Shown: one piece after another, positions 3,448 through 40,550 of the stretch
Numbering within the stretch: position 1 is the stretch's first letter
Layout of the letters: each line of letters opens with the position of its first letter
Origin: Alteraurantiacibacter sp.
GTDB taxonomy: Bacteria; Pseudomonadota; Alphaproteobacteria; Sphingomonadales; Sphingomonadaceae
Reading direction: 5' to 3'
Assembly: GCA_965213545.1 (NCBI GenBank)
Contig: CBDBZL010000002.1
Location: 268,855 to 332,854, forward strand
Length of the DNA stretch: 64,000 bases
Made by a program: the position numbers and the translations under genes
The notes under the pieces: generated by a model
Seen by the model: the letters and a program-made list of their open reading frames with translations, nothing else
Database searches by the model: none
What the model was told of the DNA's origin: nothing

Positions 3448-5363
3448 GCGGGCTGTCGATCATCATTCCATGCCGCAACACCGGTGACTGGCTGGCGCAG
3501 ACGATCCGAAGCGCGCTGGCTCAGACCCGTCCGCCCGACGAGATTATCGTGGTGGATGACGGCTCGACCGACGACAGCGCTTCGATCGCCACTTCCTTCA
3601 GAGCGCCTGTGCGGGTGGTAGCGGGACCGGCGACGGGCGCGGCCGACGCGCGCAACCACGGTGGCAAGCTGGCCACGGGCGAGCGGCTGATGTTCCTCGA
3701 TGCCGACGATCTTTTGACCCCCCCCACCCTCCATCATCTCTCGCAGGCGCTTGATGATGCGCCGCGTGCCGGCTTGGCGATCTGCCCCTGGGACCGTTAC
3801 GAGTTCGAGGGTTTCGGCTGGATCGCCACGCCTCCCACCGCCGCCCTGCCCCGCCCCGGGCAGGACCGGCTCGCGGCCTGGCTGACGGGGTGCTGGTCCC
3901 CGCCCTGCTGCATCTTGTGGACGCGTGCTGCTTTCGAGCGCTCGGGCGGTTGGCTGCAGGAAGCAGGTCTGGATGATGACGGCAACCTGCTGCGCCGGGC
4001 GCTGGCACGGGGCATCGATGCGGTCGATGCCCCGCACGGCCTGGCGCTTTACCGCCGCTTGCCAGGGGAGGCGCGCTCCTACAGCGCCCGCCGGCTCGAG
4101 CCTTTCGGCCTGCGCTCGCGCCTCGCTTCGCTGACAGACACCGCTAACGAGCTCGAGCAAAGCGGTGCCCTGCCGCTCTACCGGGCTCCCTTGAACGAGG
4201 CGCTGGCCGCGCTCCATGAGGATGCCAGGACCGTGGCCGCGATCGCGGCCACGGTCGGCGACCTCATCGCGCGGATCGGCGGCGCCCGCCGAACGAGGTC
4301 CAGGATCCACGCTCGTGCCGGGCGCTTGGGCGCCCAGGCCTCGGCCTGGGTTCGCGAGCGGACCACGCCTCCAAGATGCGTGCCCGATCCCAGCCACCAA
4401 GGGTCTCGCCAAAGACTAGCGCATCGCGCTGCGGACGCATGGGACGCCGCCCGAGTAAGCGTAATCATTCCCACATATAACCGGGCGCAACTCGTTGAAC
4501 GAGCTATCGCCAGTGTCCTTCGCCAGACGCATCCGGCGATCGAGGTTATCGTGGTCGACGACGGCTCGACCGACGAGACGCCCGCCCGCCTCGCGCGGAT
4601 CGGCGATGCCCGGGTCAAGGTGATCCGGCAGGACAATGCGGGGGTGGCCGCCGCGCGCAACCGGGGGATAAAGGAAGCAACAGGCGATTTTGTCTCCTTC
4701 ATCGATTCGGACGACGAGTGGCGCGACGACAAGCTGGCCAAGCAGCTTGCCGCGCTATCCGATGCGCCCAGCCATGTCGGGCTTTGCGTCACCGGTGGGT
4801 TCGCGGTGACTGACGGCGGAGTGCATGAACGGCGGTGGTCGCCGTCGGGTCGTCTGTTCGAGCCGTTGCTGGTCGAAAACACCATCTTCATGGGCATCGG
4901 CGCGCTGGTCCGATCTGGTGTGTTCGAGGCGGTGGGCGGCTTCGATCCGTCGCTTCCGGCTATCGAGGACTGGGACTGGCTTCAGCGTGTCGCGCGTCTC
5001 TACGATTTCGTCGCGGTCGATGAGCCCCTCATCACCTACCACGACGCTGATCAGCCGGGCCGCCGCTCGACCCGCTTTCGCGCCAACCTGGACGCGCGCG
5101 AGATGCTGTGGCGGCGTAACCGTCACGCGCTTCGGCGCGCCGGGCTGGCGCAGCGCTACCTGCTCGAAAGTGCGCGCCGTGAACTGCGCGAGAGCGACGG
5201 GCTGGACGGGCGCGGGCGGCGCCTGGTCCTGCGCGCGCTGGCGGAACGGCCGCAGAACATCGCGCTAATGCCCTGGCTGTCTTACATGGCGATGCCCTTC
5301 GCCATGCGCGCCGCCCTGCGACAGGTCGATGCAAAGCGGAGAAAGCTCGTCGTCCGGGAGTGA
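3444..5363 (+). CDS. Tandem GT2-GT2 glycosyltransferase (two complete family-2 modules in one ORF)
   Basis: GTG at 3444 overlaps the upstream stop (GTGA). Module 1: LSIIIPCRNTG, IIVVDDGSTDDS, FLDADD. Module 2: VSVIIPTYNRA, VIVVDDGSTDET, FIDSDD. Confidence 0.85.
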   Translation: MSGLSIIIPCRNTGDWLAQTIRSALAQTRPPDEIIVVDDGSTDDSASIATSFRAPVRVVAGPATGAADARNHGGKLATGERLMFLDADDLLTPPTLHHLSQALDDAPRAGLAICPWDRYEFEGFGWIATPPTAALPRPGQDRLAAWLTGCWSPPCCILWTRAAFERSGGWLQEAGLDDDGNLLRRALARGIDAVDAPHGLALYRRLPGEARSYSARRLEPFGLRSRLASLTDTANELEQSGALPLYRAPLNEALAALHEDARTVAAIAATVGDLIARIGGARRTRSRIHARAGRLGAQASAWVRERTTPPRCVPDPSHQGSRQRLAHRAADAWDAARVSVIIPTYNRAQLVERAIASVLRQTHPAIEVIVVDDGSTDETPARLARIGDARVKVIRQDNAGVAAARNRGIKEATGDFVSFIDSDDEWRDDKLAKQLAALSDAPSHVGLCVTGGFAVTDGGVHERRWSPSGRLFEPLLVENTIFMGIGALVRSGVFEAVGGFDPSLPAIEDWDWLQRVARLYDFVAVDEPLITYHDADQPGRRSTRFRANLDAREMLWRRNRHALRRAGLAQRYLLESARRELRESDGLDGRGRRLVLRALAERPQNIALMPWLSYMAMPFAMRAALRQVDAKRRKLVVRE

Positions 5364-5396
5364 GCCCCCCGTGCAGCTATGCCTTGACCACAGGTC

Positions 5397-6362
5397 TTAT
5401 ACCGGGACCCTGCTGCCCTTCAGCAAAGCGTCGAAATAGGCAATTGTCTTGGGCAGGCCTTCCTTGAGCGGCGTGCGGGGCTGCCAGCCATCGAGGCTCT
5501 CGCGGGCCAGGGTGATATCGGGTCGGCGCTGCTTGGGATCGTCGGACGGAAGGGGCTTGCGCTCGAGTACCGAGGCGGACCCGGTCAGATCGAGAATGGT
5601 CTCGGCAAGCTCGAGAATGGAGAACTCGCCCGGATTGCCCAGGTTGACCGGCCCGGTGAACTTGGCAGGCGTCTTCATGAAACGCACGAAAGCTTCGACA
5701 AGGTCGTCGACATAGCAAAAGGAGCGGGTCTGGCTGCCATCGCCATAGATGGTGATCGGCTCGCCGCGCAGCGCCTGGACGATGAAGTTGGAGACCACCC
5801 GCCCGTCTTGCGGATGCATCCTGGGACCATAGGTGTTGAAGATGCGCGCCACCTTGATCTCCAGCCCGTGCTGCCGGTGGTAGTCGAAGAACAGCGTCTC
5901 GGCGCAGCGCTTGCCCTCGTCGTAGCACGAGCGGGTTCCCACCGGATTGACGTTGCCCCAGTAGCTTTCGGGCTGCGGATGGACGATCGGGTCGCCATAG
6001 ACTTCCGAGGTCGAGGCTTGGAAGATGCGCGCGCCCGTCCGCTTGGCGAGCCCCAGCATGTTGATCGCGCCGTGCACGCTGGTCTTGGTGGTCTGCACCG
6101 GATCGTGCTGATAGTAGATCGGCGATGCGGGGCAGGCGAGGTTGTAGATCTGCCCGACCTCAACGAATAGCGGGAAGGTGATGTCGTGGCGCTTCAGCTC
6201 AAAGCGCGGGTTGCCGTGATGGTGCGCGACATTGTCGTGGCTGCCGGTGAAGAAGTTGTCGACGCACAGCACATGCGCGCCATCGGCGATCAGCCGGTCG
6301 CACAGGTGCGAGCCCAGAAAGCCCGCCCCGCCGGTGACGAGAATGCTTTGCCGTCCATACAT
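5397..6362 (-). CDS. UDP-glucuronate decarboxylase (UDP-xylose synthase)
   Basis: ATG at 6362 ([24 protein letters not shown]). Near-continuous UXS hallmarks: [62 protein letters not shown]. Confidence 0.9.
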
Positions 6363-6782
6363 GTCCCAGGCCCTCGCAGCTTTCAAACCCCCGGAGCAAC
6401 GCACGACACCCGGCATCGACCCTCCGACAGCCAAGCTGGAAGGCGAGCCGGGTAAAGATCGCAAGCAAATTCGGTTAGGAAGCCGCGGTAATCCATTGAC
6501 GGGACGGACCCTCTGCTCCGCGACAGCTTGGGCCTATCCGCCCGGACAGCCCGCGTTACCGGCCGCGCCGCCGTGATTATCGCCGCCTCGTCCCTGCCTA
6601 TCGAGCTATCGCGGCGTTGGACGAGGCGCAGTGGCTTTCCATAGGCTTGCCAAGGTGATAGCGGCGCGGGCGAGTTTCTTCCCGGATTAGAAAAGGGGCA
6701 TTTTCCATTGAGACCCGCTCGGGGGCGTGATCTGGTCAGACTGGGTGTGCCGCCGCACCTTGCCCGATAATGCCGCCCCATA

Positions 6783-7586
6783 ATGAAGGGGGATGACCGG
6801 ACCGATCTGGTGATCGTCGGCGCGCAGAAGTCGGCGACCACCACCTTGTTCGATATGCTTGCCCAGTCGCCTCGGATCGCAGCAGCGCGGCCAAAGGAAC
6901 CCCACTTTTTCAGTACCGTGGACGACTGGCGATCGCGGCTCGACGAGTATCATCGCATTTATCGCGGGCAAACCGGGTTCCTACGCCTGGAGGCATCCAC
7001 CAGCTATACCTTCTTCCCGCACCGCCGGCCGCAAATCTGGAACGACCTCAAGGAATATAATCCCGAAATCAGGGTCATCTATATCATCCGCAAGCCGACC
7101 GACCGGATCCTATCGCATTACCGGCATAGCCTCAGACGCGGCTATACGACGAAAGGTCTGCACGAGTTCGTCGCCGAGTACCCGCTGGCAATCGCAATCT
7201 GCCGATATCACTCGCAGATCGAGCCCTATCTCGAGACGTTGGGGGGGGACAATGTGCTCCTCCTTACCTTCGAGGAAGTGGTCTCGCGACAGGCCGGGAC
7301 GCTCGCGCGCATCGCCCGGTTCGCGAGCTTGCCGCAGGCCTCCCTGGAAGAAGCGGGGCATATCCACGCGAACCGCAGCGAGAATCTGGAACATTATCGC
7401 CTGATGAGGCTGGGCAAGCTCAGCCGGGCGATCGATACCCTGGCCACGCGCCGCAGAGCGGCCCGCGCCGCCGCAACGATCATGCCTCCAGACCTGGCGA
7501 GCAGGATTATCGAGCAGCTGGAACCCGAGATCGCCGGAATGGAACGCCTGATGCAGCGCAGTTTCGGGAACTGGCGTATACCCTAA
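6783..7586 (+). CDS. PAPS-dependent sulfotransferase family protein
   Basis: 5'-phosphosulfate-binding loop VIVGAQKSATTTL and 3'-phosphate-binding motif IRKPTDRILSHYRH; 267 aa. Confidence 0.75.
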   Translation: MKGDDRTDLVIVGAQKSATTTLFDMLAQSPRIAAARPKEPHFFSTVDDWRSRLDEYHRIYRGQTGFLRLEASTSYTFFPHRRPQIWNDLKEYNPEIRVIYIIRKPTDRILSHYRHSLRRGYTTKGLHEFVAEYPLAIAICRYHSQIEPYLETLGGDNVLLLTFEEVVSRQAGTLARIARFASLPQASLEEAGHIHANRSENLEHYRLMRLGKLSRAIDTLATRRRAARAAATIMPPDLASRIIEQLEPEIAGMERLMQRSFGNWRIP

Positions 7587-7606
7587 GATCGCCGGAAGCC
7601 GTCAGC

Positions 7607-8794
7607 TCAGGCCGCGCGTTCCATCCCCGGTTTTAGGACCACCTTGGTCCAGCTGTCCTGCTCGTCATGGAAGCACTGGTAGCCACGCGGGCCATCCTCC
7701 AGCGGCAAGCGATGCGAGATGAGGAAGGTGGTGTCCACCTCGCCTTTCTCGATCTTCTCCAGCAGCGGCTTGAGATAGCGTTGAACATGCGTCTGCCCGG
7801 TGCGCACCTGGACGCCCTTTTCCATCAGCGCGCCGAGTGGAAACTTGTCGGTCATCCCGCCATAGACCCCCGGGATCGAGATCTTGCCGCCGAAGCGCAC
7901 CGCCAGGATGGCTTGCTTGAGCGCCGCGGCCCGATCGGCGCCCACGCCCACGGTCTGCTTGACGATGTCGATCATGTTGTCGATCGCAAAGCCGTGCGCT
8001 TCCATGCCCACGGCGTCGATCACCGCATCGACCCCGATCCCGCCCGACATTTCCATCAACGCCTCGCGCACGTCGGTCTCGCGGAAATTGATGATGTCGG
8101 CACCCAGCTTGCGGGCCAGTTCGAGCCGGTGCGGATAGTGGTCGATGGCGATTACTTTGGCCGCGCCCATCGCGATGGCCGACTGGATCGCGAACAGGCC
8201 GACCGGACCGCAGCCCCATACCGCCACGGTATCATCGGGCTGAATGTCGGCATTTTCCGCCCCCATCCACCCGGTGGGCAGGATGTCGGACAGGAACAGG
8301 ACCTGGTCGTCCTCCAGATGGTCGGGGATCACGATTGGTCCCACATCCGAGAACGGCACGCGGACATATTCCGCCTGGCCGCCTGAATACCCGCCGGTAA
8401 GGTGCGAATAACCGAACAGCCCCGCCATTGGGTGGCCATATTGCTTGGCCGACATATCCTGCTTTTCGGCCGGGTTGGAGTTCTCGCACGCCGAGAACTG
8501 CTCGACATGGCAGTGGAAACATCCGCCGCAGCTGATTGTGAAGGGCACCACCACGCGCTGCCCTTTTTGCAGCGTGCTCTTTGCGCCGGTCTCGACCACT
8601 TCGCCCATGAACTCATGGCCCAGCACATCGCCTGCCTGCATTGCGGGAATGACGCCATCATAAAGGTGCAGGTCCGAGCCGCAGATGGCGGTCGAGGTGA
8701 CCTTGATCACCGCATCGCGCGGATTGACGATTTCGGGGTCGGACACGGTTTCCACGCGCACATCCTTGGTTCCATGCCAGGTGAGGGCACGCAT
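7607..8794 (-). CDS. Zinc-dependent alcohol / formaldehyde dehydrogenase family protein
   Basis: CGSDLHLY, GHEFMGEVVE, structural-zinc Cys cluster CGGCFHCHVEQFSAC, Rossmann VAVWGCGPVGL. Its ATG overlaps the upstream stop (TGATG at 8796-8792). Confidence 0.85.
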   Translation of the reverse strand: MRALTWHGTKDVRVETVSDPEIVNPRDAVIKVTSTAICGSDLHLYDGVIPAMQAGDVLGHEFMGEVVETGAKSTLQKGQRVVVPFTISCGGCFHCHVEQFSACENSNPAEKQDMSAKQYGHPMAGLFGYSHLTGGYSGGQAEYVRVPFSDVGPIVIPDHLEDDQVLFLSDILPTGWMGAENADIQPDDTVAVWGCGPVGLFAIQSAIAMGAAKVIAIDHYPHRLELARKLGADIINFRETDVREALMEMSGGIGVDAVIDAVGMEAHGFAIDNMIDIVKQTVGVGADRAAALKQAILAVRFGGKISIPGVYGGMTDKFPLGALMEKGVQVRTGQTHVQRYLKPLLEKIEKGEVDTTFLISHRLPLEDGPRGYQCFHDEQDSWTKVVLKPGMERAA

Positions 8795-9465
8795 CAGGCG
8801 GTCTCCTTCTCATGTTGCTTGGCGGCACGCGTCTGATCCGCTTGCCTGGCGGAGGTGGCGATCTCACCGGTCTCCATCAGCATCTTGAAACGCTTGAGGT
8901 CATGGCGGGCCTGGATCGCGGGTTCGCGCAGGAAGGCCTTGGCGATCACCCGGCCTAGCTCGCCTCCGGGTGGCTTGTAGGCGATGATAAGCGAGACGCG
9001 CGTGCCGCGTTCGCCCGGCGCGTCGGTGAATGTGACCCGGCCCTCGGTGTCGATGTCCGAGCCCTCGATCGAGCGCCAGGCGATGAGTTCGCCCTCCTCC
9101 TCGCGCACGATTTTGGTCTCCACGTCCACCGTGCGGCCTGCGGGTGCCTTGATCGTCCAGACCGCATGGCCGCTTGCCGCATCCTTCACCTCGATCTGTT
9201 CGAGGTTTTCCATGAAGGAGGCAAGATTGGTGAAATCGCGCCAGAACGAGAACAGTTCATGGCGCGGTTTGCGGATGGTGACCGTGCGGCCGACGACATC
9301 ATATTTGCCGAACGAGCGCCGCTGGGTGAAGCCGGGCGCATCATCACCCCAGTCGCGATCTTCGCTGCTCGCACGCCGAGCGGCAAGCACCGCGCCCAGT
9401 GCCACCCCGCCGAGCGCCAGGCCCACTGCGGCCAGCCCGGCGCCTTCTTGCTTGTCCTTCGTCAT
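8794..9465 (-). CDS. Membrane-anchored SRPBCC (cyclase/dehydrase, START-like) family protein
   Basis: ATG at 9465 preceded by AAGGAGA. N-terminal TM helix GLAAVGLALGGVALGAVLAA, then an SRPBCC-like body (ELFSFWRDFTNLASFMENL ... WRSIEGSDIDTEGRVTF). Confidence 0.7.
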   Translation of the reverse strand: MTKDKQEGAGLAAVGLALGGVALGAVLAARRASSEDRDWGDDAPGFTQRRSFGKYDVVGRTVTIRKPRHELFSFWRDFTNLASFMENLEQIEVKDAASGHAVWTIKAPAGRTVDVETKIVREEEGELIAWRSIEGSDIDTEGRVTFTDAPGERGTRVSLIIAYKPPGGELGRVIAKAFLREPAIQARHDLKRFKMLMETGEIATSARQADQTRAAKQHEKETA

Positions 9466-9517
9466 GAGAATCTCCTTGTGATCAATAGGATGCATGGCCG
9501 CCCGGTTTCGTTCCGCC

Positions 9518-10090
9518 TCAGCGTCGCAGCAGGTCGATCCGGTAATTTTCGTGGCAAGTCTCATCATGAACCGACCAGGATGCGGCATCGGCAAACAGGC
9601 GTGCCGCTTGTGCGCCGCCAACCGGCAGATCGTTCTCCCCGGTCCAGTTGACCAGCAGGCACGTGCTGCCACCGGCCAGCGTAGAATGAGCGCGCCGTGC
9701 GGTCGCGGCAATTTCCCCGGCGGAAAGGAAGTAGAGGACTTCGGAAAAGATGATGAGGTCGAACTCGCCCGGCGGCCAGTCACCGGGTATCTCGCGGCGC
9801 TCGAAGCGCACTTGGGGCAAGCCGCCAAGCCGGTCGCGCGCGCGCTCCAGTGCCGTCTCCGAGACATCGATCGCCAGCAGCATCTCGCAGCGCGGCGCAA
9901 GCATGGCCGTAAGAAGGCCCGTCGCGCAGCCTATCTCCAGACCGTGCCGGTATCGGGCGTCGGCCAGCGCGGCTAGGGTCTGCGAACGCTTGTCGCGCTC
10001 ATAAGCGCTGTGCTCCAGGTCCCACGGATCGGTTCCATCGGCGAACAACCGATCGAAGGTGGTCCGCCGCTCGCTCTTGCGCTCAGCCAC
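9518..10090 (-). CDS. NodS-like class I SAM-dependent methyltransferase
   Basis: GTG at 10090 overlaps the upstream stop (GTGGCTGA). DPWDLEHSAYERDK, SAM motif I GLEIGCATGLL, LLAIDVS, IIFSEVLYF. Confidence 0.7.
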   Translation of the reverse strand: MAERKSERRTTFDRLFADGTDPWDLEHSAYERDKRSQTLAALADARYRHGLEIGCATGLLTAMLAPRCEMLLAIDVSETALERARDRLGGLPQVRFERREIPGDWPPGEFDLIIFSEVLYFLSAGEIAATARRAHSTLAGGSTCLLVNWTGENDLPVGGAQAARLFADAASWSVHDETCHENYRIDLLRR

Positions 10091-10823
10091 GGATGAAGAG
10101 TTCCGGCCACAAGGCGAAATGCTCGGCCAGCGCGGCAGGCATGACGAAGGCATCGGGATCATCGGGGATCAGCCTGGTCATTTGCGAGCGGTGCGCCGCC
10201 ATGGCGCGGCGCTTCTTCATCACCAGGTCGGGATCGCCCGGTTCGAACCGGGTCAACTCGGGCACTGGGTGCGAAAGCGCGCCGAACCTGCCCCACACCG
10301 GAAACTCCCACAGCACGGCGCCAAGGCGGCGAGCCAGCCGCCCGGCGATGGCGGCAGCGGCTTGATGATCGCAGTGAGGATCGTGCCGCCAGGTGGTCCA
10401 TATGCTGCACACGCGAAGATCGCGCCCCCGTTGCTCGAGCGCGTCCAGCCGTTCGGGATCGAGCATATCCGCCGTGCTGCTGCCATCGGGAAGCGAAAGC
10501 CGTTCCATCAATACGGGCCGCTCGCCGACCAGCAGCGTCAGAGCCTCGGCCAGCTCAGCGCGGCGGATGGTAGCCAGGCGCTCCCGGCTGGTGGCGCGCG
10601 ATTTGGGATGCGAGCCTTCGCCATCGGTCAGCAGGACAAGCATCAGGTCGCGCCCCGCCCGTGCCGCGGCCGACAGCGCCATCCCGCAGCCGAGCGTCTC
10701 ATCGTCGGGGTGGGGGATAACCAGCATCAGTCCGCCCGGCGGGGAAAGCTCGTCCAGGCTGACCTCACGCGCCTGACGGGTCAGTGCCAAAAGCGCGCCC
10801 TCGGCAACCTGCGGGACGCTCAC
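10083..10823 (-). CDS. PIG-L / LmbE family N-acetylglucosaminyl deacetylase
   Basis: GTG at 10823 overlaps the upstream stop (GTGA). Signature LMLVIPHPDDETLGCG, then LTDGEGSHP and WRHDPHCDH. Confidence 0.8.
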   Translation of the reverse strand: MSVPQVAEGALLALTRQAREVSLDELSPPGGLMLVIPHPDDETLGCGMALSAAARAGRDLMLVLLTDGEGSHPKSRATSRERLATIRRAELAEALTLLVGERPVLMERLSLPDGSSTADMLDPERLDALEQRGRDLRVCSIWTTWRHDPHCDHQAAAAIAGRLARRLGAVLWEFPVWGRFGALSHPVPELTRFEPGDPDLVMKKRRAMAAHRSQMTRLIPDDPDAFVMPAALAEHFALWPELFIRG

Positions 10824-11911
10824 AGCGCCTCCGCCATACCGCCCGCCGCGATGAGCCCTGCCGCCGCCCGCGCGCGCTTGGCGTCGGGCGCCGCCTGGCA
10901 CACGAACAGCGCCAGATCGCGGCGTATCCGCTCGATCGCGGTTCCCTCGACATGCGCCGCCATGCCCAGCGCCCGCTCGCATTGGGCGATGACCGCAAGG
11001 CAGGAGCGTTCGGTAACCTCGCGCGCCAGCAAGGCCAGTGCCGCCTTTTGCGGGTCAGCGTCCTTCGCTTCGACCGCATAGGCCGCTCGCAGGATCCACA
11101 GCCGCGCAGTCTCGATCGCGATCGCAGCACGCACAATGCGGTCGCGCTGATGCGGGTCATCCTGCCTCCCGGATGCCACCAGCGCCTCGATCATCGCGGT
11201 ATGAAGCGCTTCCGCCGCGCCCAGATGCGCCGCGCAATAACGCCACACCCCGCCCTCGAAATGCGGTTCGCGCGTGTAGTCCCCCGCCTGACCGAGACGC
11301 GCGTCATCGCCAAGTTTCAGACCGCCGAAATCATATTCGCCCGACCGCGTCGCCCGCATCCCCGCCATTCGCCAGGGCTGAGCATCGGCGCGTGCGGGAT
11401 CGTCGGCCGGCACCACCAGCATCTGCACCCCCTCGCCCATCCTCGCGATCACCACCGCCGCGCCGATAACCCCCAGACCCGAGGCGAACCGCTTGCCGCC
11501 CACCAGCACCAGCTGGTCCCCGGTAACCTCCAGCGCCAATGGTCGCGCGGGCGTATCGGCACCCCACACCCCCAGCATGACCCCGTCTCGAACGTCGGCG
11601 AAGACCCGATCGCGCAGGGCCGGGGCGGCATAGAGGTCCACCAGCTTGGCCGCGTTCATATGGCCTTCGAACAGCCGTGCGACCGACAGATTGGCCCGCC
11701 CCATGTTTCTAAGCGCCAGGAAGGCAGCTTCGGTCGCACCAGGCTCGCAGCCCCACCCGCTGCCCCCGGCAATGGTCGGCAGGCACGCGCGCAACCAGCC
11801 TGCCTCGCGAAGCGATGCGACATCGGCAAGCAGACAGCCATCGGTCCGATCGGCCAGATCCGCCCGTCCGGTGATGTCGGCAATGAGCGTGTTCGCGCTG
11901 GGATCAGGCAT
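10820..11911 (-). CDS. Acyl-CoA dehydrogenase family protein
   Basis: 363 aa. ACAD-like middle and C-terminal regions (VLVGGKRFASGLG, MRATRSGEYDF, AAHLGAAEAL). ATG overlaps the upstream stop (ATGCCTGA at 11911-11904). Confidence 0.7.
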   Translation of the reverse strand: MPDPSANTLIADITGRADLADRTDGCLLADVASLREAGWLRACLPTIAGGSGWGCEPGATEAAFLALRNMGRANLSVARLFEGHMNAAKLVDLYAAPALRDRVFADVRDGVMLGVWGADTPARPLALEVTGDQLVLVGGKRFASGLGVIGAAVVIARMGEGVQMLVVPADDPARADAQPWRMAGMRATRSGEYDFGGLKLGDDARLGQAGDYTREPHFEGGVWRYCAAHLGAAEALHTAMIEALVASGRQDDPHQRDRIVRAAIAIETARLWILRAAYAVEAKDADPQKAALALLAREVTERSCLAVIAQCERALGMAAHVEGTAIERIRRDLALFVCQAAPDAKRARAAAGLIAAGGMAEAL

Positions 11912-13124
11912 CGAGCAGAAGGTCCGCCCCGTCGCCTGTCGCGTTCGCCTCGACCAACAGCGCCTCGGCCTTCGCCAGTTCGCTGGCGACCTGGTCCTGG
12001 CGCATGCGCGGTCCGGTCAGCGAGGGATCACGCCCCAGCGCCTGCGCGAAGCGGGCCGCACGGTCCGGTTCCGGCGCAAGGCCATTCCAAAGCTCTGCCC
12101 GGCGATGCAGCAGCGCTATCGGCACCAGGTCATCGTCGCACAAAGGGTTGGCGCTGGTCGCGCGTTCGCTCAGCGCATCGCTCACCCCGCCCGGCGTTCG
12201 CCCCTCCGTCCGGCCCGATGTGACCACCAGCGCATCATCGCGGCAGACGATGGTCATCCCCGCCTCGCCCGCCAGTCGCGCCAAGGCCTTGTCCTCGCCC
12301 GACTTGGGCGTAGGCAGCCCACCCAGCGCACGGTAGCAGCGGGTGCTGATCGCCAGGCTCGCGGCCAGCGCGGGGATAGCAGCGGGAAGCCCGTCATGTC
12401 CGGTCCACAAATGCCACAGGCTGGCGCTGCACGCCTTGTAGGCCCGCTCCAGCGCGCCGCACTCGTGGACGCTGGCGGGCAGCCGGGACAGGTCCGCCTC
12501 GTCGATGGTCACCGCACCGCAGACCAGGTCGGCTCCCTCCCTGAGCGCCGCTAGTTTGACCGCCAGCCAGGCGGGATCGACACGGCTGTCGGCATCGGTG
12601 GTGAGCAGATTGCCGCCCGGTGCCAGCATCGCCGCCAGATCGAGCGCCAGACGGCGAGCGAAGGGAGCAAAGCGCATCTCATCGGCGAAAAGCGTGTCCG
12701 CCACCAGCACATGGCGTCTGGCGTTACGAGCCCAGTCGAGGATCAGCGCGGACGAGGCATCATGGGAGTCGTTGACCACGAAAACCACCGCGCCGATGAC
12801 CTCAACGCGCTTCATCGCCGCATCGAGCGCCGCCAGACTGGCAGGCAGCAGCGCCTCTTCGTTGCGGACGGGCACCGCGATGGCGAACGACACCGGCGCC
12901 TTAACGGTCGAACGCACCTGATCGATGCGAGCGCGGCCAGTGAATGGCGGGGCAGCGAGCAGGCTCTTGATCACATCCTGATCGAGCGGTTCGGGTTCTG
13001 CTTGCTGACGAAAAGTGCGACCGGTCTCACCCACGTCCGGTGCGACAAAGGCGTCCTTCGGCAATCGGCCGACAGAAGATGCCCCGCCAAGCGGAATGAA
13101 CATCATCGGCGGTTCCCTTGCCAC
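11904..13124 (-). CDS. Family 2 glycosyltransferase
   Basis: [39 protein letters not shown] (DxD). Start could also be the ATG pair near 13106/13103. Confidence 0.75.
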
Positions 13125-13479
13125 CGACCATGGCGAGCAAAGACATCTGATGCCTCATCACGACAAGTTACCCGCGCGTTCGCGCCCGGCCACAGAAAGG
13201 ACCGTTCGTCCGGTAGGGGGCGGTGCGAACGATATGGGCAAGCCGAGGTGGCTGCGACAGCCAAAAGACACCTCCCAAGTGTGGTTTGTGAAGGACGGTT
13301 CCCGCGCAAAGACAAGCGATGAAATGCTCTCGCGTTCCAGCAAGCCCCCTGACAGCGCTTGGCCGTTGCCACCCTCTCACGGCCACCTTGCTTGCGTCCA
13401 CCATGCGTGCTGCCTAAGGAGCCAGCCGTCATTTCCACCACGCGCATTCAACATCAGCACGCATCAGGGGCGCCGCAGC

Positions 13480-14709
13480 ATGGGCAAGATTAAGGTCGCA
13501 AATCCCGTCGTCGAGATCGACGGCGACGAGATGACGCGGATCATCTGGCAGTGGATCCGCGAGCGTCTGATCCTCCCCTATCTCGATATCGACCTCAAAT
13601 ATTACGACTTGGGGATAGAGAAGCGCGACGAGACGCGTGACAAGATCACCGTCGAGTCTGCCGAGGCGATCAGGCAATACGGCGTCGGCGTCAAATGCGC
13701 GACCATCACGCCGGACGAAGCGCGGGTCGAGGAATTCGGGCTGGCCGAGATGTACCGCTCGCCCAACGGCACGATCCGCAACATCCTGGGCGGCACCATT
13801 TTCCGCGAGCCCATCGTCATCGAGAACGTGCCGCGGCTGATCCCCGGCTGGACCGACCCCATCGTGGTCGGCCGCCATGCCTTCGGCGATCAGTACCGGG
13901 CGACTGACATGCTCGTGCCCGGCCCCGGCAAGCTGCGCCTCGTGTTCGAGGGCGACGACGGCAAGGTTATCGACCGCGAGGTCTACGAGTTCAAGGAACC
14001 GGGCGTCGCAATGGCGATGTACAATTTGGACGAATCGATCCGCGATTTCGCCCGCGCCAGCCTGAATTACGGGCTCGATCGCGGCTGGCCGGTTTACCTG
14101 TCGACCAAGAACACCATCCTCAAGAAGTATGACGGGCGCTTCAAGGACCTGTTCCAGGAGGTGTTCGATACCGAAGGCTTCGCGCAGAAGTTCGACGAGG
14201 CGGGGATTGAATACCAGCACCGGCTGATCGACGACATGGTGGCCTCGGCGCTCAAGTGGAACGGCAAGTTCATCTGGGCCTGTAAGAACTATGACGGCGA
14301 CGTCCAGTCCGACCAGGTGGCGCAGGGCTTCGGCTCGCTGGGCCTGATGACCTCGGTGCTGATGACCCCCGACGGCAAGACCGTGGAGGCCGAGGCCGCG
14401 CACGGCACCGTCACCCGCCATTTCCGCCAGCACCAGGAGGGCAAGGCAACCTCGACCAACCCCATCGCCTCGATCTTCGCCTGGACCCGCGGCCTCATGT
14501 ATCGCGGCCGCTTCGATGGCACGCCGCAAGTGGTCAAGTTCGCCGAATCACTGGAGCGCGTCTGCGTCAGCCGGGTCGAGAGCGGACAGATGACCAAGGA
14601 CCTCGCGCTGCTCATCGGCCCGGGCCAGAACTGGCTGACCACCGAGCAATTCTTCGAGACCATCGTCGAGGGGCTGGAGGCGGAGATGGAGACGAAGGGG
14701 TTGGGGTGA
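13480..14709 (+). CDS. icd: NADP-dependent isocitrate dehydrogenase (homodimeric type)
   Basis: [26 protein letters not shown]..., [20 protein letters not shown]; about 409 aa. Confidence 0.95.
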
Positions 14710-14712
14710 CGG

Positions 14713-15648
14713 CTAAACGGCCAGACCTGCCTCTTCAAAGTAGGCCTCATCCACCTCGCGAATGTGCAGCACGGCCCTATCGCGACAGCCGACGTTGAAC
14801 TTAATCATCAACCGGACAAGCTGCTGACCGTCAATCAACACGATGCGCTGACCAAGGTCCTTTGCGGTCTGCCGCGCTGATGGCGTAAAATCCGACGTAG
14901 TGACAAAAATACCTTTGTGAGCTTTTTTTAAGTTCAGCGCGCCATAAAAGTCTCGGATATGTGAGGGCGCTATGTTGTTTCCCGTCCTGTAGCGTTTGGC
15001 TTGCAGATAGATTTGGTCAACACCGAGCGAGTCTTGATCGATGACGCCGTCAACGCCGTCGTCGCCTGCTTGACCAAGGGCACGACCGGGATTTTCAGAC
15101 GATCCGCCATAGCCCATCGATATCAGCAGATCGACGATCAGGTGCTCGAAGAATGTCGGCGATGCGGCTTGAATATAGTCGAGCAGCGTAGCCGCAAGCG
15201 CATCATCCAATCGGCGGTGTGCTTGCTCAAGATTTTCATCCGGAGTTGTTGCAACCTCGCCTGTATCAATATCGTCCTCGGCTGACGACAACTGCTCAGT
15301 CTTATCTTTGGTCCGCGAACGGAAATCTTGAAACTCAGGGTATATTTCAAGGTGCTTTATGTTTATCTTGATATTCGGATCGGCGAGCACGCCGCGACCG
15401 CGATCGGTCAATTCGTACCATCCCCGTTTCCCGTAAATGATCAGCGCCGCTTGCTTGAGGTAAGTACGCGCCCAGTGCGCGCGGTTGAAAATGCGGGTTT
15501 GACCACTTGCGAGGGGCTCGTTCCGCTCTTCCTGAGTGAGGTTGAATTGGTCCGCGAGCTCTTCGACCACTTCCGACATCTTGCGGGGTTTGTCGGCGGC
15601 GGCTGCCAGCACTGGACGCATAAGAGCCTGAAAATCCGGAACCGCCAT
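14713..15648 (-). CDS. mrr: Mrr-type (type IV, modification-dependent) restriction endonuclease
   Basis: ATG at 15648. Mrr_N winged helix (MAVPDFQALMRPVL...), catalytic core GDDGVDGVIDQD...IYLQAKRY, GIFVTTSDFT. GC is about 40% on the two 60-nt lines I counted, against about 65% in flanks. Confidence 0.9.
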   Translation of the reverse strand: MAVPDFQALMRPVLAAAADKPRKMSEVVEELADQFNLTQEERNEPLASGQTRIFNRAHWARTYLKQAALIIYGKRGWYELTDRGRGVLADPNIKINIKHLEIYPEFQDFRSRTKDKTEQLSSAEDDIDTGEVATTPDENLEQAHRRLDDALAATLLDYIQAASPTFFEHLIVDLLISMGYGGSSENPGRALGQAGDDGVDGVIDQDSLGVDQIYLQAKRYRTGNNIAPSHIRDFYGALNLKKAHKGIFVTTSDFTPSARQTAKDLGQRIVLIDGQQLVRLMIKFNVGCRDRAVLHIREVDEAYFEEAGLAV

Positions 15649-15756
15649 GAAAACCCCTCGCCGACCATCAGTTCGGAAATGCCTATGGGGCTGACTTGTC
15701 TTAAAGTGAAGCATCCACCGATTTGCGCTGATTTCGGAAGCCGCTAAGGCCCCCCC

Positions 15757-17355
<1,599 letters not shown>

Positions 17356-17381
17356 GCCGGACGGGTCTGGGGCGTCGGTCG

Positions 17382-18017
17382 CTACCCGACCGGCTCCATC
17401 CCCTGCCGCTCGAGCGCCATCCTGACGCCTTCGTCCCGTTCCATCCGCTTGCGATGCTCGATCAGCGAAGGGTAATCGCTCGCCGATAAGGGCGTCTGGT
17501 CGAGCCAGCGGGTCAGCACATAGAGAAAGGCGTCGGCGAAGCTGCGCTGGCCGAGATACCACTCGCCGCCGTTCTCCTTGAGGTTCGCTTCCATCCGCTC
17601 GTAGTGACCGGCGAGCGTCTCGTAGGCCTTGCGCTTGACCTCCTCCTGCGCGCTTTCGCTGTCGGCGAAGCGGGCGGCGGCGAAGTGGGGGCCGTAGGCG
17701 GCGTGGACCTCGCTCGTCATGTAGGCCAGCGCCTCGCCCTCCTTGCGGCCGAGCCGCTCGTCGCGCGAATATTCCTCGGTGCCCTCACCGCCATATTCGG
17801 TGCCAAGCCAGGTCAGGATCGCGGCGAGCTCGGTCAGCACATCGCCGTCATCGAAGCGGATCGCGGGCACCTTGCCCTTGGGATTGATCGAAAGATACGC
17901 ATCCTTCTTGTGCGCGCCATATTCCATGTTCTCGATCTCGATCGGTGCATCGAGCCAGGCAACCGCGATATTCGCCGCCAGCGAGCAGGTTCCGGGCATG
18001 GTGTAGAGGGTGGTCAT
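17382..18017 (-). CDS. Glutathione S-transferase
   Basis: ATG at 18017 with AGGAGA upstream. MTTLYTMPGTCSLAANIAVAW, INPKGKVPAIRFDDG; 211 aa. Confidence 0.85.
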   Translation of the reverse strand: MTTLYTMPGTCSLAANIAVAWLDAPIEIENMEYGAHKKDAYLSINPKGKVPAIRFDDGDVLTELAAILTWLGTEYGGEGTEEYSRDERLGRKEGEALAYMTSEVHAAYGPHFAAARFADSESAQEEVKRKAYETLAGHYERMEANLKENGGEWYLGQRSFADAFLYVLTRWLDQTPLSASDYPSLIEHRKRMERDEGVRMALERQGMEPVG

Positions 18018-38897: not shown

Positions 38898-40550
38898 GTG
38901 ACCCGGAGAAACACCGCCGCGCGCTGGTCGCACTCCAAGCATCGCTGGCTGGCCATCATCGGCGGGATTAGCCTTGTCGTGTGGGGACTGTCGAGTCTTA
39001 CCCATATCGCCATGGTGCTGTCCGGGCCGCAGCAAGCACGGTTCTTGCCGTCCGCCGCCACGGTGTCTCTCCAATCTCCAAGGGGCACGGCCGATCACGC
39101 AGATACTCGGCGAGCGCAACATCGACCGGGCAGTGGCGGTCAAGACCGTGGCGGCCCCGGGGGGCGGGGTGATATGGCAGGTAACCAGCCAACCGATGGC
39201 CCCGCGCCGTTATTTTCAGCCCGGCGATGGCAGCGAGGTGGCCGATGGTGACCGGCGGCAGGCTGTGTTCCTGGCTCGTCACTATCTGGCTACCGACCGG
39301 CCGGTGACATCCGCCATCCTGCAGACCGAGTTCGACGGCGACTAACCCTGGGTCAACCGGCTGCTTCCCGTGTGGAAACTGACGTTCCAGGGCGAAGACG
39401 GGCTTACCGCTTACGTCCACACCGAAGCCTCGAGCCTGGCGGCGGTCAACAACCATACCAAGAACGTGCTGCAGGGAATCTTTCGTGCGCTTCACTCTTG
39501 GGAATGGGTACCCGAGCGGATGGATTGGCTGCGGGTCGTTGTCATGGCGCTGATGGTGGGAAGCCTGCTCGCATTGGCGGTGACCGGGATCGCCATGCTG
39601 GTGGCAATTCGCCGCCGCAAGCGTCTGCCGGGAAGCCGGGGCTGGCGCCGGGTGGCGGGCTATGTGCTGGGATTGCCGCTTATCATGTTCGCCGCATCGG
39701 GCATTTATCATCTGGTGCAATCGGCGCTGGTGCCGCCGGGCAGCCAGCTCAGGATGGGCGCTCCGCTTGCTGTTGCCGATGGCGACTGGCCGGTCGAGCG
39801 GGACTGGACCGCGCTTTCTGGTGGTCGGCAGGTCACTTCGATGGCGTTGGTGGAAGGGGTGATGGCCGTCCGCGCTATTGCCTCGGTCTGGCTCAACCGG
39901 ACGCGCCCGGCGGTGGCGGCGGCGGCGGCGAGCATGATCATGGCCCTGGCGAAGCACGAGGCAAGGACGCCGCCGCAGCGCGCGCGGACGAGCACGGATC
40001 GCACGATAATACCGCAATGATCGCCGATAGCACGTTGCCCACGACAGACGTCGAGATCCGCGAGGCGCGCTTCGCCGGATTATAGCCCGACGGACCCGCG
40101 ATCTATCTCCACGCTGCTACCGGCGAGGTGGCCAACCGGGGTGAACGCGACATCGCGCTCGATATCGCCCGCCGCTTCTCGGGCGCATCCGATGAGGCGG
40201 TAACGGGCATCGAACTGGTCACCCGGTTTGGATCCGAATATGATTTCCGGAACAAGCGGCTCCCGGTCTGGCGGGTGGATTACGGCGCTCCGGTCGATGC
40301 CAGATTCTATGTCGATCCATCGGCCGGCGTGCTGGTCGACCTGGTGGCCGACTGGGAAAAGCCCGAGCGCTTCGTATTCAGCATGGTCCACAAGTGGAAC
40401 TTTTTGTTCCCGGTCGGACGTTTGTTGCTCAACATCGTGGTCGCCGCCATGGTCATCGGGCTCATCGGCTTCATGGCCGTGCTGGGTCTCCGGATGGACC
40501 TGGCGCGCCGGTTGCGCGAACGGCGTCGATCGGCATTGGGGGCGGGTTAA
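38898..40550 (+). pseudogene. Disrupted PepSY-associated TM (PiuB-like iron-regulated membrane) protein gene
   Basis: Coherent protein only if four lesions are bridged. Frame 0 to frame 1 switch near AAGGGG 39080-39085. In-frame TAA at 39343-39345 inside EFDGD*PWVNRLLPVWKLTF, whose paralogous second module reads GSEYDFRNKRLPVWRVDY. Frame 1 to frame 0 switch near AAGGGG 39854-39859. In-frame TAG at 40083-40085 (FAGL*PDGPAIYLHAATGEV). Confidence 0.6.

Follow-up and report, generated by a model that had tools for sequence, protein, structure and literature searches.

Which product could call for a glycosyltransferase, a flavoprotein, a deacetylase and a methyltransferase encoded by four genes that overlap end to end? 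The question is raised by a stretch of 64,000 nucleotides from Alteraurantiacibacter sp. (contig CBDBZL010000002.1, positions 268,855 to 332,854 of the forward strand; hereafter, the window), which carries these genes, referred to here as the cassette, on its minus strand. In their order of transcription they encode a soluble GT2-type glycosyltransferase of the GT-A fold with a helical C-terminal extension (11904..13106; assigned with Pfam PF00535, the AlphaFold2 (AF2) model and Foldseek); a flavoprotein with the fold of the acyl-CoA dehydrogenases (ACADs), which belongs to a distinct clade and is the marker gene of the cassette (10820..11911; weak Pfam matches to the ACAD N, M and C domains); a zinc-dependent de-N-acetylase of the PIG-L/LmbE family, with a GTG start (10083..10823; PF02585); and a NodS-family class I methyltransferase dependent on S-adenosylmethionine (SAM), also with a GTG start (9518..10090; PF05401). 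A preliminary description of this DNA had proposed a tailoring logic like that of the Nod factors. From the sequence data we consider it on balance probable that the cassette encodes a cytoplasmic, probably associated enzyme set that would build or tailor an amino-sugar glycoside, most likely for stress tolerance. The formation, de-N-acetylation and tailoring of a glycoside are chemistry of a known kind; what is new is the obligatory flavoenzyme and the link with stress islands. A full-text search of a literature library found no description of the cassette, the main text of papers on general stress response regulons does not mention its genes, no equivalog model of NCBIfam describes it, and a PADLOC run gave no defence-system match, only a generic Rossmann cross-match of the methyltransferase and a neighbouring alcohol dehydrogenase to mad2; as the preliminary description supposed, the cassette maps to no characterised pathway in these sources.

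The preliminary description also held that the four genes form one translationally coupled unit, and their overlaps, their conserved order and the existence of natural fusions all bear this out. Read on the minus strand, the three overlaps that it had listed are all in place: the GT2 stop codon TGA (11906-11904) lies within ATGCCTGA, where the flavoprotein gene starts with the ATG at 11911; GTGA at 10823-10820 combines the flavoprotein stop and the PIG-L GTG start; and GTGGCTGA at 10090-10083 combines the PIG-L stop with the GTG start of the methyltransferase. The protein motifs that it quoted were likewise found in the sequence, and abutting or overlapping junctions of cassette genes are also present in other genomes. 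The short GTG starts proposed for PIG-L and the methyltransferase give proteins of 246 and 190 residues, to be compared with 232-247 and 187-204 residues in the annotated orthologues. The start given for the GT2 gene, on the other hand, probably needs correction; the open reading frame (ORF) can be extended to the GTG at 13124, but an identical 400-residue protein in the public databases (P0270) begins at the ATG at 13106, which is therefore probably the true start. Overlaps of 4-8 nucleotides are common in GC-rich operons, and the window alone shows no regulator, transporter or product, so the four genes could be regarded as unrelated neighbours, or as a lineage-specific fragment of secondary metabolism, with overlaps that come from compact high-GC packing. 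The probability of this explanation is practically negligible, since it is refuted by a gene order conserved over at least three phyla and by multiple independent fusion architectures.

The distribution of the cassette was followed through its flavoprotein. When 1.84 billion representative proteins were scanned in full with HMMER, its family gave 233 clusters at 50% identity (E<1e-30), and a second scan, of one genome per GTDB species, confirmed at least 589 relatives. The source organism is a member of the Erythrobacteraceae; among the matches listed, the best relatives are Qipengyuania and Erythrobacter. The set of loci, classified with iterated hidden Markov models, comprised 80 loci from the species-genome scan and further ones on plasmids and chromids; gene order was counted over 86 loci, and stress-related neighbours over 91 loci with flanks of ±8 kb. 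The exact order GT2>ACAD>PIG-L>MT, where MT denotes the methyltransferase, was found in 34 of the 86 loci, and all four families are inside 5 kb in about 52. Outside Methylobacterium, all loci with enough flank have the ACAD/PIG-L/MT triad, which was also seen in Deinococcus and Phycisphaera; without exception, the loci that lack PIG-L or the methyltransferase are at contig ends (L022, L035, L052, L060) or are paralogue loci of the Methylobacterium type. The cassette was also found on chromosome II of Deinococcus radiodurans, on a plasmid of another Deinococcus, on a plasmid of Bradyrhizobium, and on replicons of Novosphingobium, Sphingobium, Komagataeibacter, Sulfitobacter, Roseivivax, Paracoccus and Jiella. 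It is thus present in several hundred bacterial species at least, including the model stress-resistant organisms D. radiodurans and Methylobacterium, and every copy is annotated generically.

The preliminary description had made its case depend on the four families being neighbours elsewhere, and in many genomes they are, even as parts of one polypeptide. Natural fusions include GT2-ACAD, GT4-ACAD, MT-ACAD, ACAD-PIG-L and ACAD-PIG-L-MT, and in Phycisphaera mikurensis, which carries the cassette, PIG-L and the methyltransferase are a single protein; in this way every adjacent pair of the cassette, plus MT-ACAD, is known as a natural fusion, PIG-L being joined to the flavoprotein in P0175, P0223, P0258, P0260 and P0267. 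The order conserved over three phyla, together with these fusions, strongly indicates that the four genes encode one functional enzyme set, whose members are probably physically associated. A small soluble unit for which natural fusion proteins exist is also experimentally tractable.

The strongest clue to the role of the cassette, which the preliminary description missed, comes from its neighbours. The cassette lies in stress islands, an association that had gone unnoticed. Within ±8 kb of it, an HPII-type catalase is encoded in 20 of the 91 loci, a Mn catalase in 5, DUF892 in 12, Ku/LigD modules in about 13 and OtsAB in 3, and at least one of these gene types in 47; by our own estimate, as opposed to a matched control, far fewer than 1% of 17-kb windows drawn at random would contain a given single-copy gene. 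Further neighbours include Dps, a universal stress protein, a 'general stress protein', TreZ and single-domain response regulators, one of which directly follows the methyltransferase gene in Paracoccus (L090:8197-8505). The Erythrobacteraceae share the conserved block ZnADH<SRPBCC<catalase< >DUF892>GT2>ACAD>PIG-L>MT, in which an operon of catalase, an SRPBCC protein and a Zn-dependent alcohol dehydrogenase (Zn-ADH) is divergent from DUF892 and the cassette (L006, L007, L009, L012, L014 and L018; e.g., L009:2068-10322); Zn-ADH is near the cassette in L003, L006-L010, L012, L014 and L018. The catalase gene is immediately upstream on the same strand in Qipengyuania atrilutea, Brevundimonas, Gluconacetobacter, a metagenome-assembled genome of the Paracoccaceae, Novosphingobium and Sphingobium, and in Sulfitobacter it is downstream of the cassette.

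Some of the loci also carry signs of stress regulation. PAS-HWE histidine kinases, the type of kinase that feeds the alphaproteobacterial general stress response, are encoded beside the cassette in 13 loci (cluster 11: L018, L030, L038, L050, L054, L058, L061, L062, L066, L071 and others; also L085:14385-14972). Exact promoters of the EcfG type (GGAAC-N15/17-CGTT) precede DUF892 or GT2 in L012, L014, L027 and L068, and looser -35 elements of the extracytoplasmic function (ECF) type were seen in other Erythrobacteraceae and in Rhodobacteraceae; over all loci the exact EcfG pattern is not enriched, with 24 matches against about 16 expected. Given the catalase, DUF892, Ku/LigD and trehalose genes of the islands, and the ECF/EcfG-type promoters of some lineages, the product would most likely serve stress tolerance. 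The same linkage suggests that an unrecognised small molecule or glycoconjugate contributes to oxidative or desiccation tolerance.

Among the four proteins, the flavoprotein is the one that the preliminary description called ACAD-like. The part of this label that refers to the fold stands: the AF2 model (predicted local distance difference test score, pLDDT, of 95.7) shows the three-domain ACAD fold, and in the Pfam search, as in all family assignments made here, scores were judged against the cut-off of each model, the C-terminal domain passing with 24.5 bits against 22.4 and the N-terminal and middle domains remaining below theirs. The part that would refer to the reaction does not stand, since the protein is without the catalytic Glu and resembles the DszC-type flavin monooxygenases at least as much. 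Its Foldseek TM-score was about 0.8 against ACADs and equally so against flavin monooxygenases, DszC, TdsC, MsuC and ORF36 among them. When the family profile was compared with the PDB, the best match was DszC (2e-27), followed by MsuC, two entries named 'flavin-containing monooxygenase' and short-chain ACADs (SCAD, about 5e-22), and the amino-sugar N-oxygenases KijD3, DnmZ and ORF36 were matched at 1e-17 to 1e-19. The top NCBIfam matches were DszC, with 30 bits against a cut-off of 850, and SfnB, with 28 against 431.

The residues expected at the active site are informative in this regard. A profile of the C-terminal domain aligned the invariant R331-D332 to the 'R-D' of the ACADs (residue 360 of SCAD and 368 of the medium-chain enzyme, MCAD), and the catalytic Glu of these enzymes (SCAD Glu368, MCAD Glu376) is eight residues downstream, or, in the alternative represented by isovaleryl-CoA dehydrogenase (IVD), at Glu254. 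At the first of these positions the window protein has Ala340, where the family consensus has Pro; the second is occupied by the invariant Gly221. A genuine ACAD was sought as an alignment control in the window and in the loci, and none was found. As to DszC, its Ser163 aligns with the near-invariant S144, and GGKRFASG corresponds to GTKHFCSG of DszC, both having the motif K-x-F-x-S-G; on the other hand, His391 of DszC is replaced by Gln339, Asn129 is without a counterpart, and the DszC model is missed by the wide margin given above. The protein without catalytic Glu and with Gln in place of His391 would therefore fall outside both the canonical acyl-CoA dehydrogenases and the DszC-type enzymes, and it is predicted to be unable to act as an acyl-CoA alpha,beta-dehydrogenase. 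Judged by its invariant residues (R79, E82, H84, N86, W116, K140, R224, R331-D332, R338-Q339 and D343), it is a separate clade of flavoenzymes.

A close functional parallel may be found among KijD3, the ORF36 nitrososynthase, DnmZ and the DszC-type group D flavin monooxygenases, with which the flavoprotein shares the fold (TM-score of about 0.8), the absence of the catalytic Glu and the K-x-F-x-S-G motif. Like the ACAD-fold amino-sugar N-oxygenases, it has as its genomic partner an enzyme that generates a sugar amine. It differs from them and from DszC in that the signature R79/E82/H84/N86, R338-Q339 and D343 is its own and no reductase partner is linked, and from the N-oxygenases in that its substrate would be a glycoside instead of a sugar bound to thymidine diphosphate. 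To our knowledge, the only ACAD-fold enzymes that act on sugars are amine N-oxygenases; for this reason N-oxygenation is the most coherent guess for the reaction of the flavoprotein. An invariant active-site signature that is neither that of the ACADs nor that of DszC suggests that amino sugars undergo a new kind of flavin chemistry here.

The enzyme that would provide the amine is the PIG-L deacetylase. The protein scores 78.1 bits with PF02585 (cut-off 28.2), its HPDDE and HxDH motifs align with those of TT1542, and H38, D40, D41, E42, H150, D152 and H153 are invariant in all 56 orthologues compared. Its sole NCBIfam matches are BshB1/BshB2, Mca and MshB, all of them weak (22-33 bits against cut-offs of 182-277), and its membership in the MshB, BshB or Mca families was rejected as every equivalog cut-off was missed. 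These matches nevertheless bring to mind the glucosamine-based redox buffers of low molecular weight, i.e., mycothiol, bacillithiol and N-methyl-bacillithiol (made by MshA-MshB, BshA-BshB-BshC and, for the methylation, NmbA). Both thiol pathways open with a glycosyltransferase and then a PIG-L enzyme that acts on a glycoside of N-acetylglucosamine (GlcNAc), the N-methylated variant includes an N-methyltransferase, which would be the role of the methyltransferase here, and the linkage to catalase and Dps fits the redox and stress association of these compounds. We consider it very unlikely that the cassette makes such a buffer: the BshB and MshB scores are far under the cut-offs, the glycosyltransferase is a GT2 and not the GT4 of MshA and BshA, no cysteine ligase (MshC/BshC) was present in any locus examined, the ACAD fold, which does not support ATP-dependent ligase chemistry, has no counterpart in the thiol pathways, and the hosts are mostly Alphaproteobacteria that use glutathione.

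The last gene of the cassette was described as encoding a NodS-like methyltransferase, which is correct as regards the family and not as regards orthology. The protein scores 67 bits with PF05401 (cut-off 24) and only 81.6 bits with the NodS equivalog of NCBIfam (NF041650), for which the cut-off is 300. Over 74 orthologues its motifs ExGCxxG (SAM motif I), D75 and SExxY range from near-invariant to invariant, and it is 44% identical to the orthologue of D. radiodurans; thus the loss of catalytic residues, which the preliminary description saw as a danger for its proposal, occurs neither in the deacetylase nor in the methyltransferase. The nearest solved structure is the uncharacterised 4ISC (9e-27), followed by NodS (3OFJ, 8e-16). 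Orthology with NodS was rejected, given the missed cut-off, the closer match to 4ISC and the lack of nod context, none of nodA, nodB and nodC being found with the cassette. In a separate observation, 4ISC is a methyltransferase of 164 residues from a structural-genomics effort, and the genome that it comes from may have the cassette too.

The GT2 glycosyltransferase has less to say about its substrate. In the window it scores 22.9 bits with PF00535, marginally below the cut-off of 23.3, and its orthologues score 26-62 bits; with this marginal case, the family assignments of the preliminary description proved right for all four genes. The catalytic motifs DxD (D-A-D) and E-D are invariant in 64 of 64 orthologues, and the AF2 model (pLDDT 87.6) shows a GT-A core with the helical C-terminal extension, for which Foldseek returned only generic GT-A relatives with a TM-score of about 0.4 that resolve no function. 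By orthology with the glycosyltransferases of Phycisphaera, Sulfitobacter, Roseivivax and Novosphingobium, and with the N-terminal domains of the fusions P0121 and P0203, the window protein is assigned as the cognate glycosyltransferase of the cassette. The best PDB matches of its profile, ArnC (3e-9), PcManGT and GtrB, would suit an enzyme that acts on a lipid phosphate, in which case the cassette could modify a glycoconjugate of the envelope or membrane (a glycolipid, lipopolysaccharide or polyprenyl-phosphate sugar), with the flavoprotein acting on an acyl chain; the lipid-binding type SRPBCC protein with a transmembrane anchor that is encoded after the operon, and the several accessory glycosyltransferases of other lineages, agree with this view. 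It is nonetheless unlikely. The similarity covers only profile positions 34-167, the nucleotide-binding half, and this partial length, the TM-score and the absence of a transmembrane helix led us to reject the ArnC/GtrB/DPMS class for this protein; none of the four cassette proteins has a predicted transmembrane helix, nor was an amphipathic anchor detected; no conserved flippase, polymerase or transporter gene accompanies the cassette; Deinococcus, Planctomycetota and Proteobacteria share it despite having very different envelopes; and the Glu required for acyl desaturation is absent.

These results leave the analogy with Nod-factor tailoring (NodC, NodB and NodS) as a partial one. A coupled unit, the protein families and the intact residues are as the preliminary description had them, and both systems would combine a GT2, the de-N-acetylation of GlcNAc and SAM-dependent methylation by a PF05401 enzyme. 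The resemblance to NodC was not sustained, since the glycosyltransferase is soluble, without a transmembrane helix, and its similarity is generic to GT-A enzymes with ArnC and GtrB as the best matches; the deacetylase is a PIG-L enzyme and not a NodB of family CE4; there is no NodA acyltransferase; the methyltransferase is under the NodS cut-off; and the ACAD-fold flavoenzyme is an obligatory extra. The hosts of the cassette are mostly non-symbiotic and its context consists of stress genes. A second comparison can be made with aminoglycoside tailoring, where a GT4, a PIG-L 2'-N-acetylparomamine deacetylase, an FAD dehydrogenase and N-methyltransferases form a similar set of glycosyltransferase, deacetylase, flavoenzyme and N-methyltransferase, and the gentamicin N-methyltransferases are among the weak PDB matches of the cassette methyltransferase. 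In contrast with these clusters, the cassette has no genes for 2-deoxystreptamine or another scaffold, its flavoenzyme has the ACAD fold and not that of the GMC family, and it is a small unit, conserved on the chromosomes of non-producers.

Taking the four families together, the following sequence of reactions can be proposed. The soluble GT2 would transfer an N-acetylhexosamine, most likely GlcNAc from UDP-GlcNAc, to an acceptor other than a lipid carrier; PIG-L, whose family chemistry and intact motifs suggest this step, would remove the N-acetyl group and expose the C2 amine; the flavoprotein might then oxidise the product, most plausibly at the freed amine, or else work as an oxidase that uses O2, a step that we propose with low confidence; and the NodS-family enzyme would methylate the amine or the hydroxylamine. 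The product would most likely act in tolerance to oxidative, desiccation or stationary-phase stress. In a more specific version, which we regard as a tentative possibility, the enzymes form a metabolon, co-inherited with catalase and further stress genes in Alphaproteobacteria, Deinococcus and Planctomycetota, that makes an N-oxidised and/or N-methylated glucosaminide, e.g., a radical scavenger of the hydroxylamine or nitrone type, or a new redox or desiccation protectant. If this version is true, the ACAD-fold member would represent a new class of flavin enzymes that act on the amines of glycosides.

Several points weigh against the proposal of an amino-sugar glycoside made for stress tolerance. 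The sugar, the acceptor, the order of the steps and the reaction of the flavoenzyme are all inferred. Foldseek was unable to separate the ACADs from the monooxygenases for the flavoprotein, the catalytic His of DszC is missing from it as well as the ACAD Glu, and no flavin reductase or electron-transfer flavoprotein (ETF) partner is linked to the cassette. The 64 kb of the window contain no gene for catalase, DUF892 or Ku, and the region upstream of the operon has no canonical EcfG promoter (GGAAC-N16-17-CGTT). The glycosyltransferase complement is variable, with extra genes of the GT4, GT28-like and second GT-A types in other lineages, and in Deinococcus a domain without a Pfam match, unrelated to the window GT2, stands in its place; the product may therefore differ by lineage or be an oligosaccharide. 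Lastly, the linkage to catalase could instead reflect H2O2 released by the flavoenzyme.

This last point leads to a serious alternative to N-oxygenation, in which the flavoprotein is an O2-dependent oxidase, H2O2 is the by-product that explains the catalase, and the cassette is catabolic or detoxifying, acting on an external or damaged amino-sugar compound. ACAD-fold oxidases do exist, such as nitroalkane oxidase and acyl-CoA oxidase, the lack of a linked reductase or ETF agrees with an oxidase, and so does the catalase gene that in many lineages directly adjoins the cassette in the same orientation. We judge this explanation of the whole cassette to be improbable, as the neighbourhood has a general-stress signature that extends beyond catalase to DUF892, Ku/LigD, OtsAB/TreZ, Dps, HWE kinases and both universal and general stress proteins; besides, a glycosyltransferase is a biosynthetic enzyme, and the conserved neighbours include neither a transporter nor a hydrolase.

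In the window, the operon probably extends beyond the cassette. An SRPBCC (polyketide-cyclase-like) protein with one N-terminal transmembrane anchor (8794..9465, minus strand; Pfam PF10604 and PF03364) is encoded from 52 nucleotides after the methyltransferase stop on the same strand, with no terminator-like site in the gap, and is probably co-transcribed with the cassette. It is followed by a Zn-ADH that is FdhA-like and not an equivalog (7607..8794, minus strand; Pfam ADH_N and ADH_zinc_N; NCBIfam TIGR02819, 195 bits against a cut-off of 637), and the start codon of this gene and the SRPBCC stop codon share one base at 8794. The SRPBCC and Zn-ADH genes of the stress island are thus appended to the operon, as in Qipengyuania sp. 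(L003), and the operon in the window probably comprises six genes. Compared with the Erythrobacteraceae block, the window genome is missing catalase and DUF892, and the SRPBCC-ZnADH pair has moved directly behind the methyltransferase gene.

The presumed promoter region of the operon is the intergenic region that separates it from the divergent icd (13107..13488, 382 nt; minus strand). On the coding strand of the operon, this region has three GGAAC pentamers (13338, 13302 and 13116) where 0.36 would be expected (P about 0.006); 16 nucleotides separate the one at 13338 from a GCTT, which follows it, and the one at 13116 overlaps the start region annotated for GT2. The region has neither a canonical EcfG -10 element nor a sigma-70-like site or Rfam match, and scans of 7000-14000 for sigma-70 promoters, terminators and Rfam families gave nothing useful. 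The sole exact GGAAC-N17-CGTT match in the window (40396-40422, plus strand) was discarded as probably no promoter, since it lies inside an ORF (40128-40550) and such matches are no more frequent than chance would give.

Some of the loci deserve a separate comment. In D. radiodurans chromosome II (L083:4738-7077) the flavoprotein is the C-terminal part of a fusion of 779 residues, whose N-terminal 400 residues match nothing in Pfam and bear no relationship to the window GT2; the original annotation of strain R1 splits this protein into a 'beta-glucosidase/hypothetical' of 467 residues and an 'acyl-CoA dehydrogenase' of 330, and at the same locus a DEAD/DEAH helicase gene lies between PIG-L and the methyltransferase. 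The Methylobacterium paralogue loci (L032, L036, L037, L041, L042, L049, L059 and L079; approx. 5300-11200) have one to three tandem ACAD-like genes and a methyltransferase gene without PIG-L, and adjoin a gene for cytochrome b561 and/or a molybdopterin oxidoreductase, together in some cases with a luciferase-like monooxygenase; they may represent a distinct system built around the same pair of flavoenzyme and methyltransferase.

The other genes near the cassette in the window, i.e., a sulfotransferase, a UXS-like gene, icd and an Mrr-like gene, are not conserved with it. The UXS-like gene, which encodes an epimerase/dehydratase resembling UDP-glucuronate decarboxylase (5397-6464, minus strand), and the sulfotransferase gene (6783-7586, plus strand) both flank Zn-ADH, and over 91 loci neither accompanies the cassette as a conserved gene; the idea that the latter has a NodH-like role was rejected for its lack of conservation. 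On the Komagataeibacter plasmid, a different TPR-sulfotransferase adjoins the cassette. Several recurrent ORFs, 'cluster 5' among them, were discarded as antisense artefacts of high-GC genes. Finally, the ORF of 949 residues at 14713-17562 (minus strand), read by eye only, apparently ends in a real Mrr-like restriction protein at its C-terminal side, and its upstream extension is an artefact that runs antisense to a GNAT and nitrilase-like gene at 15757-17355 on the plus strand.

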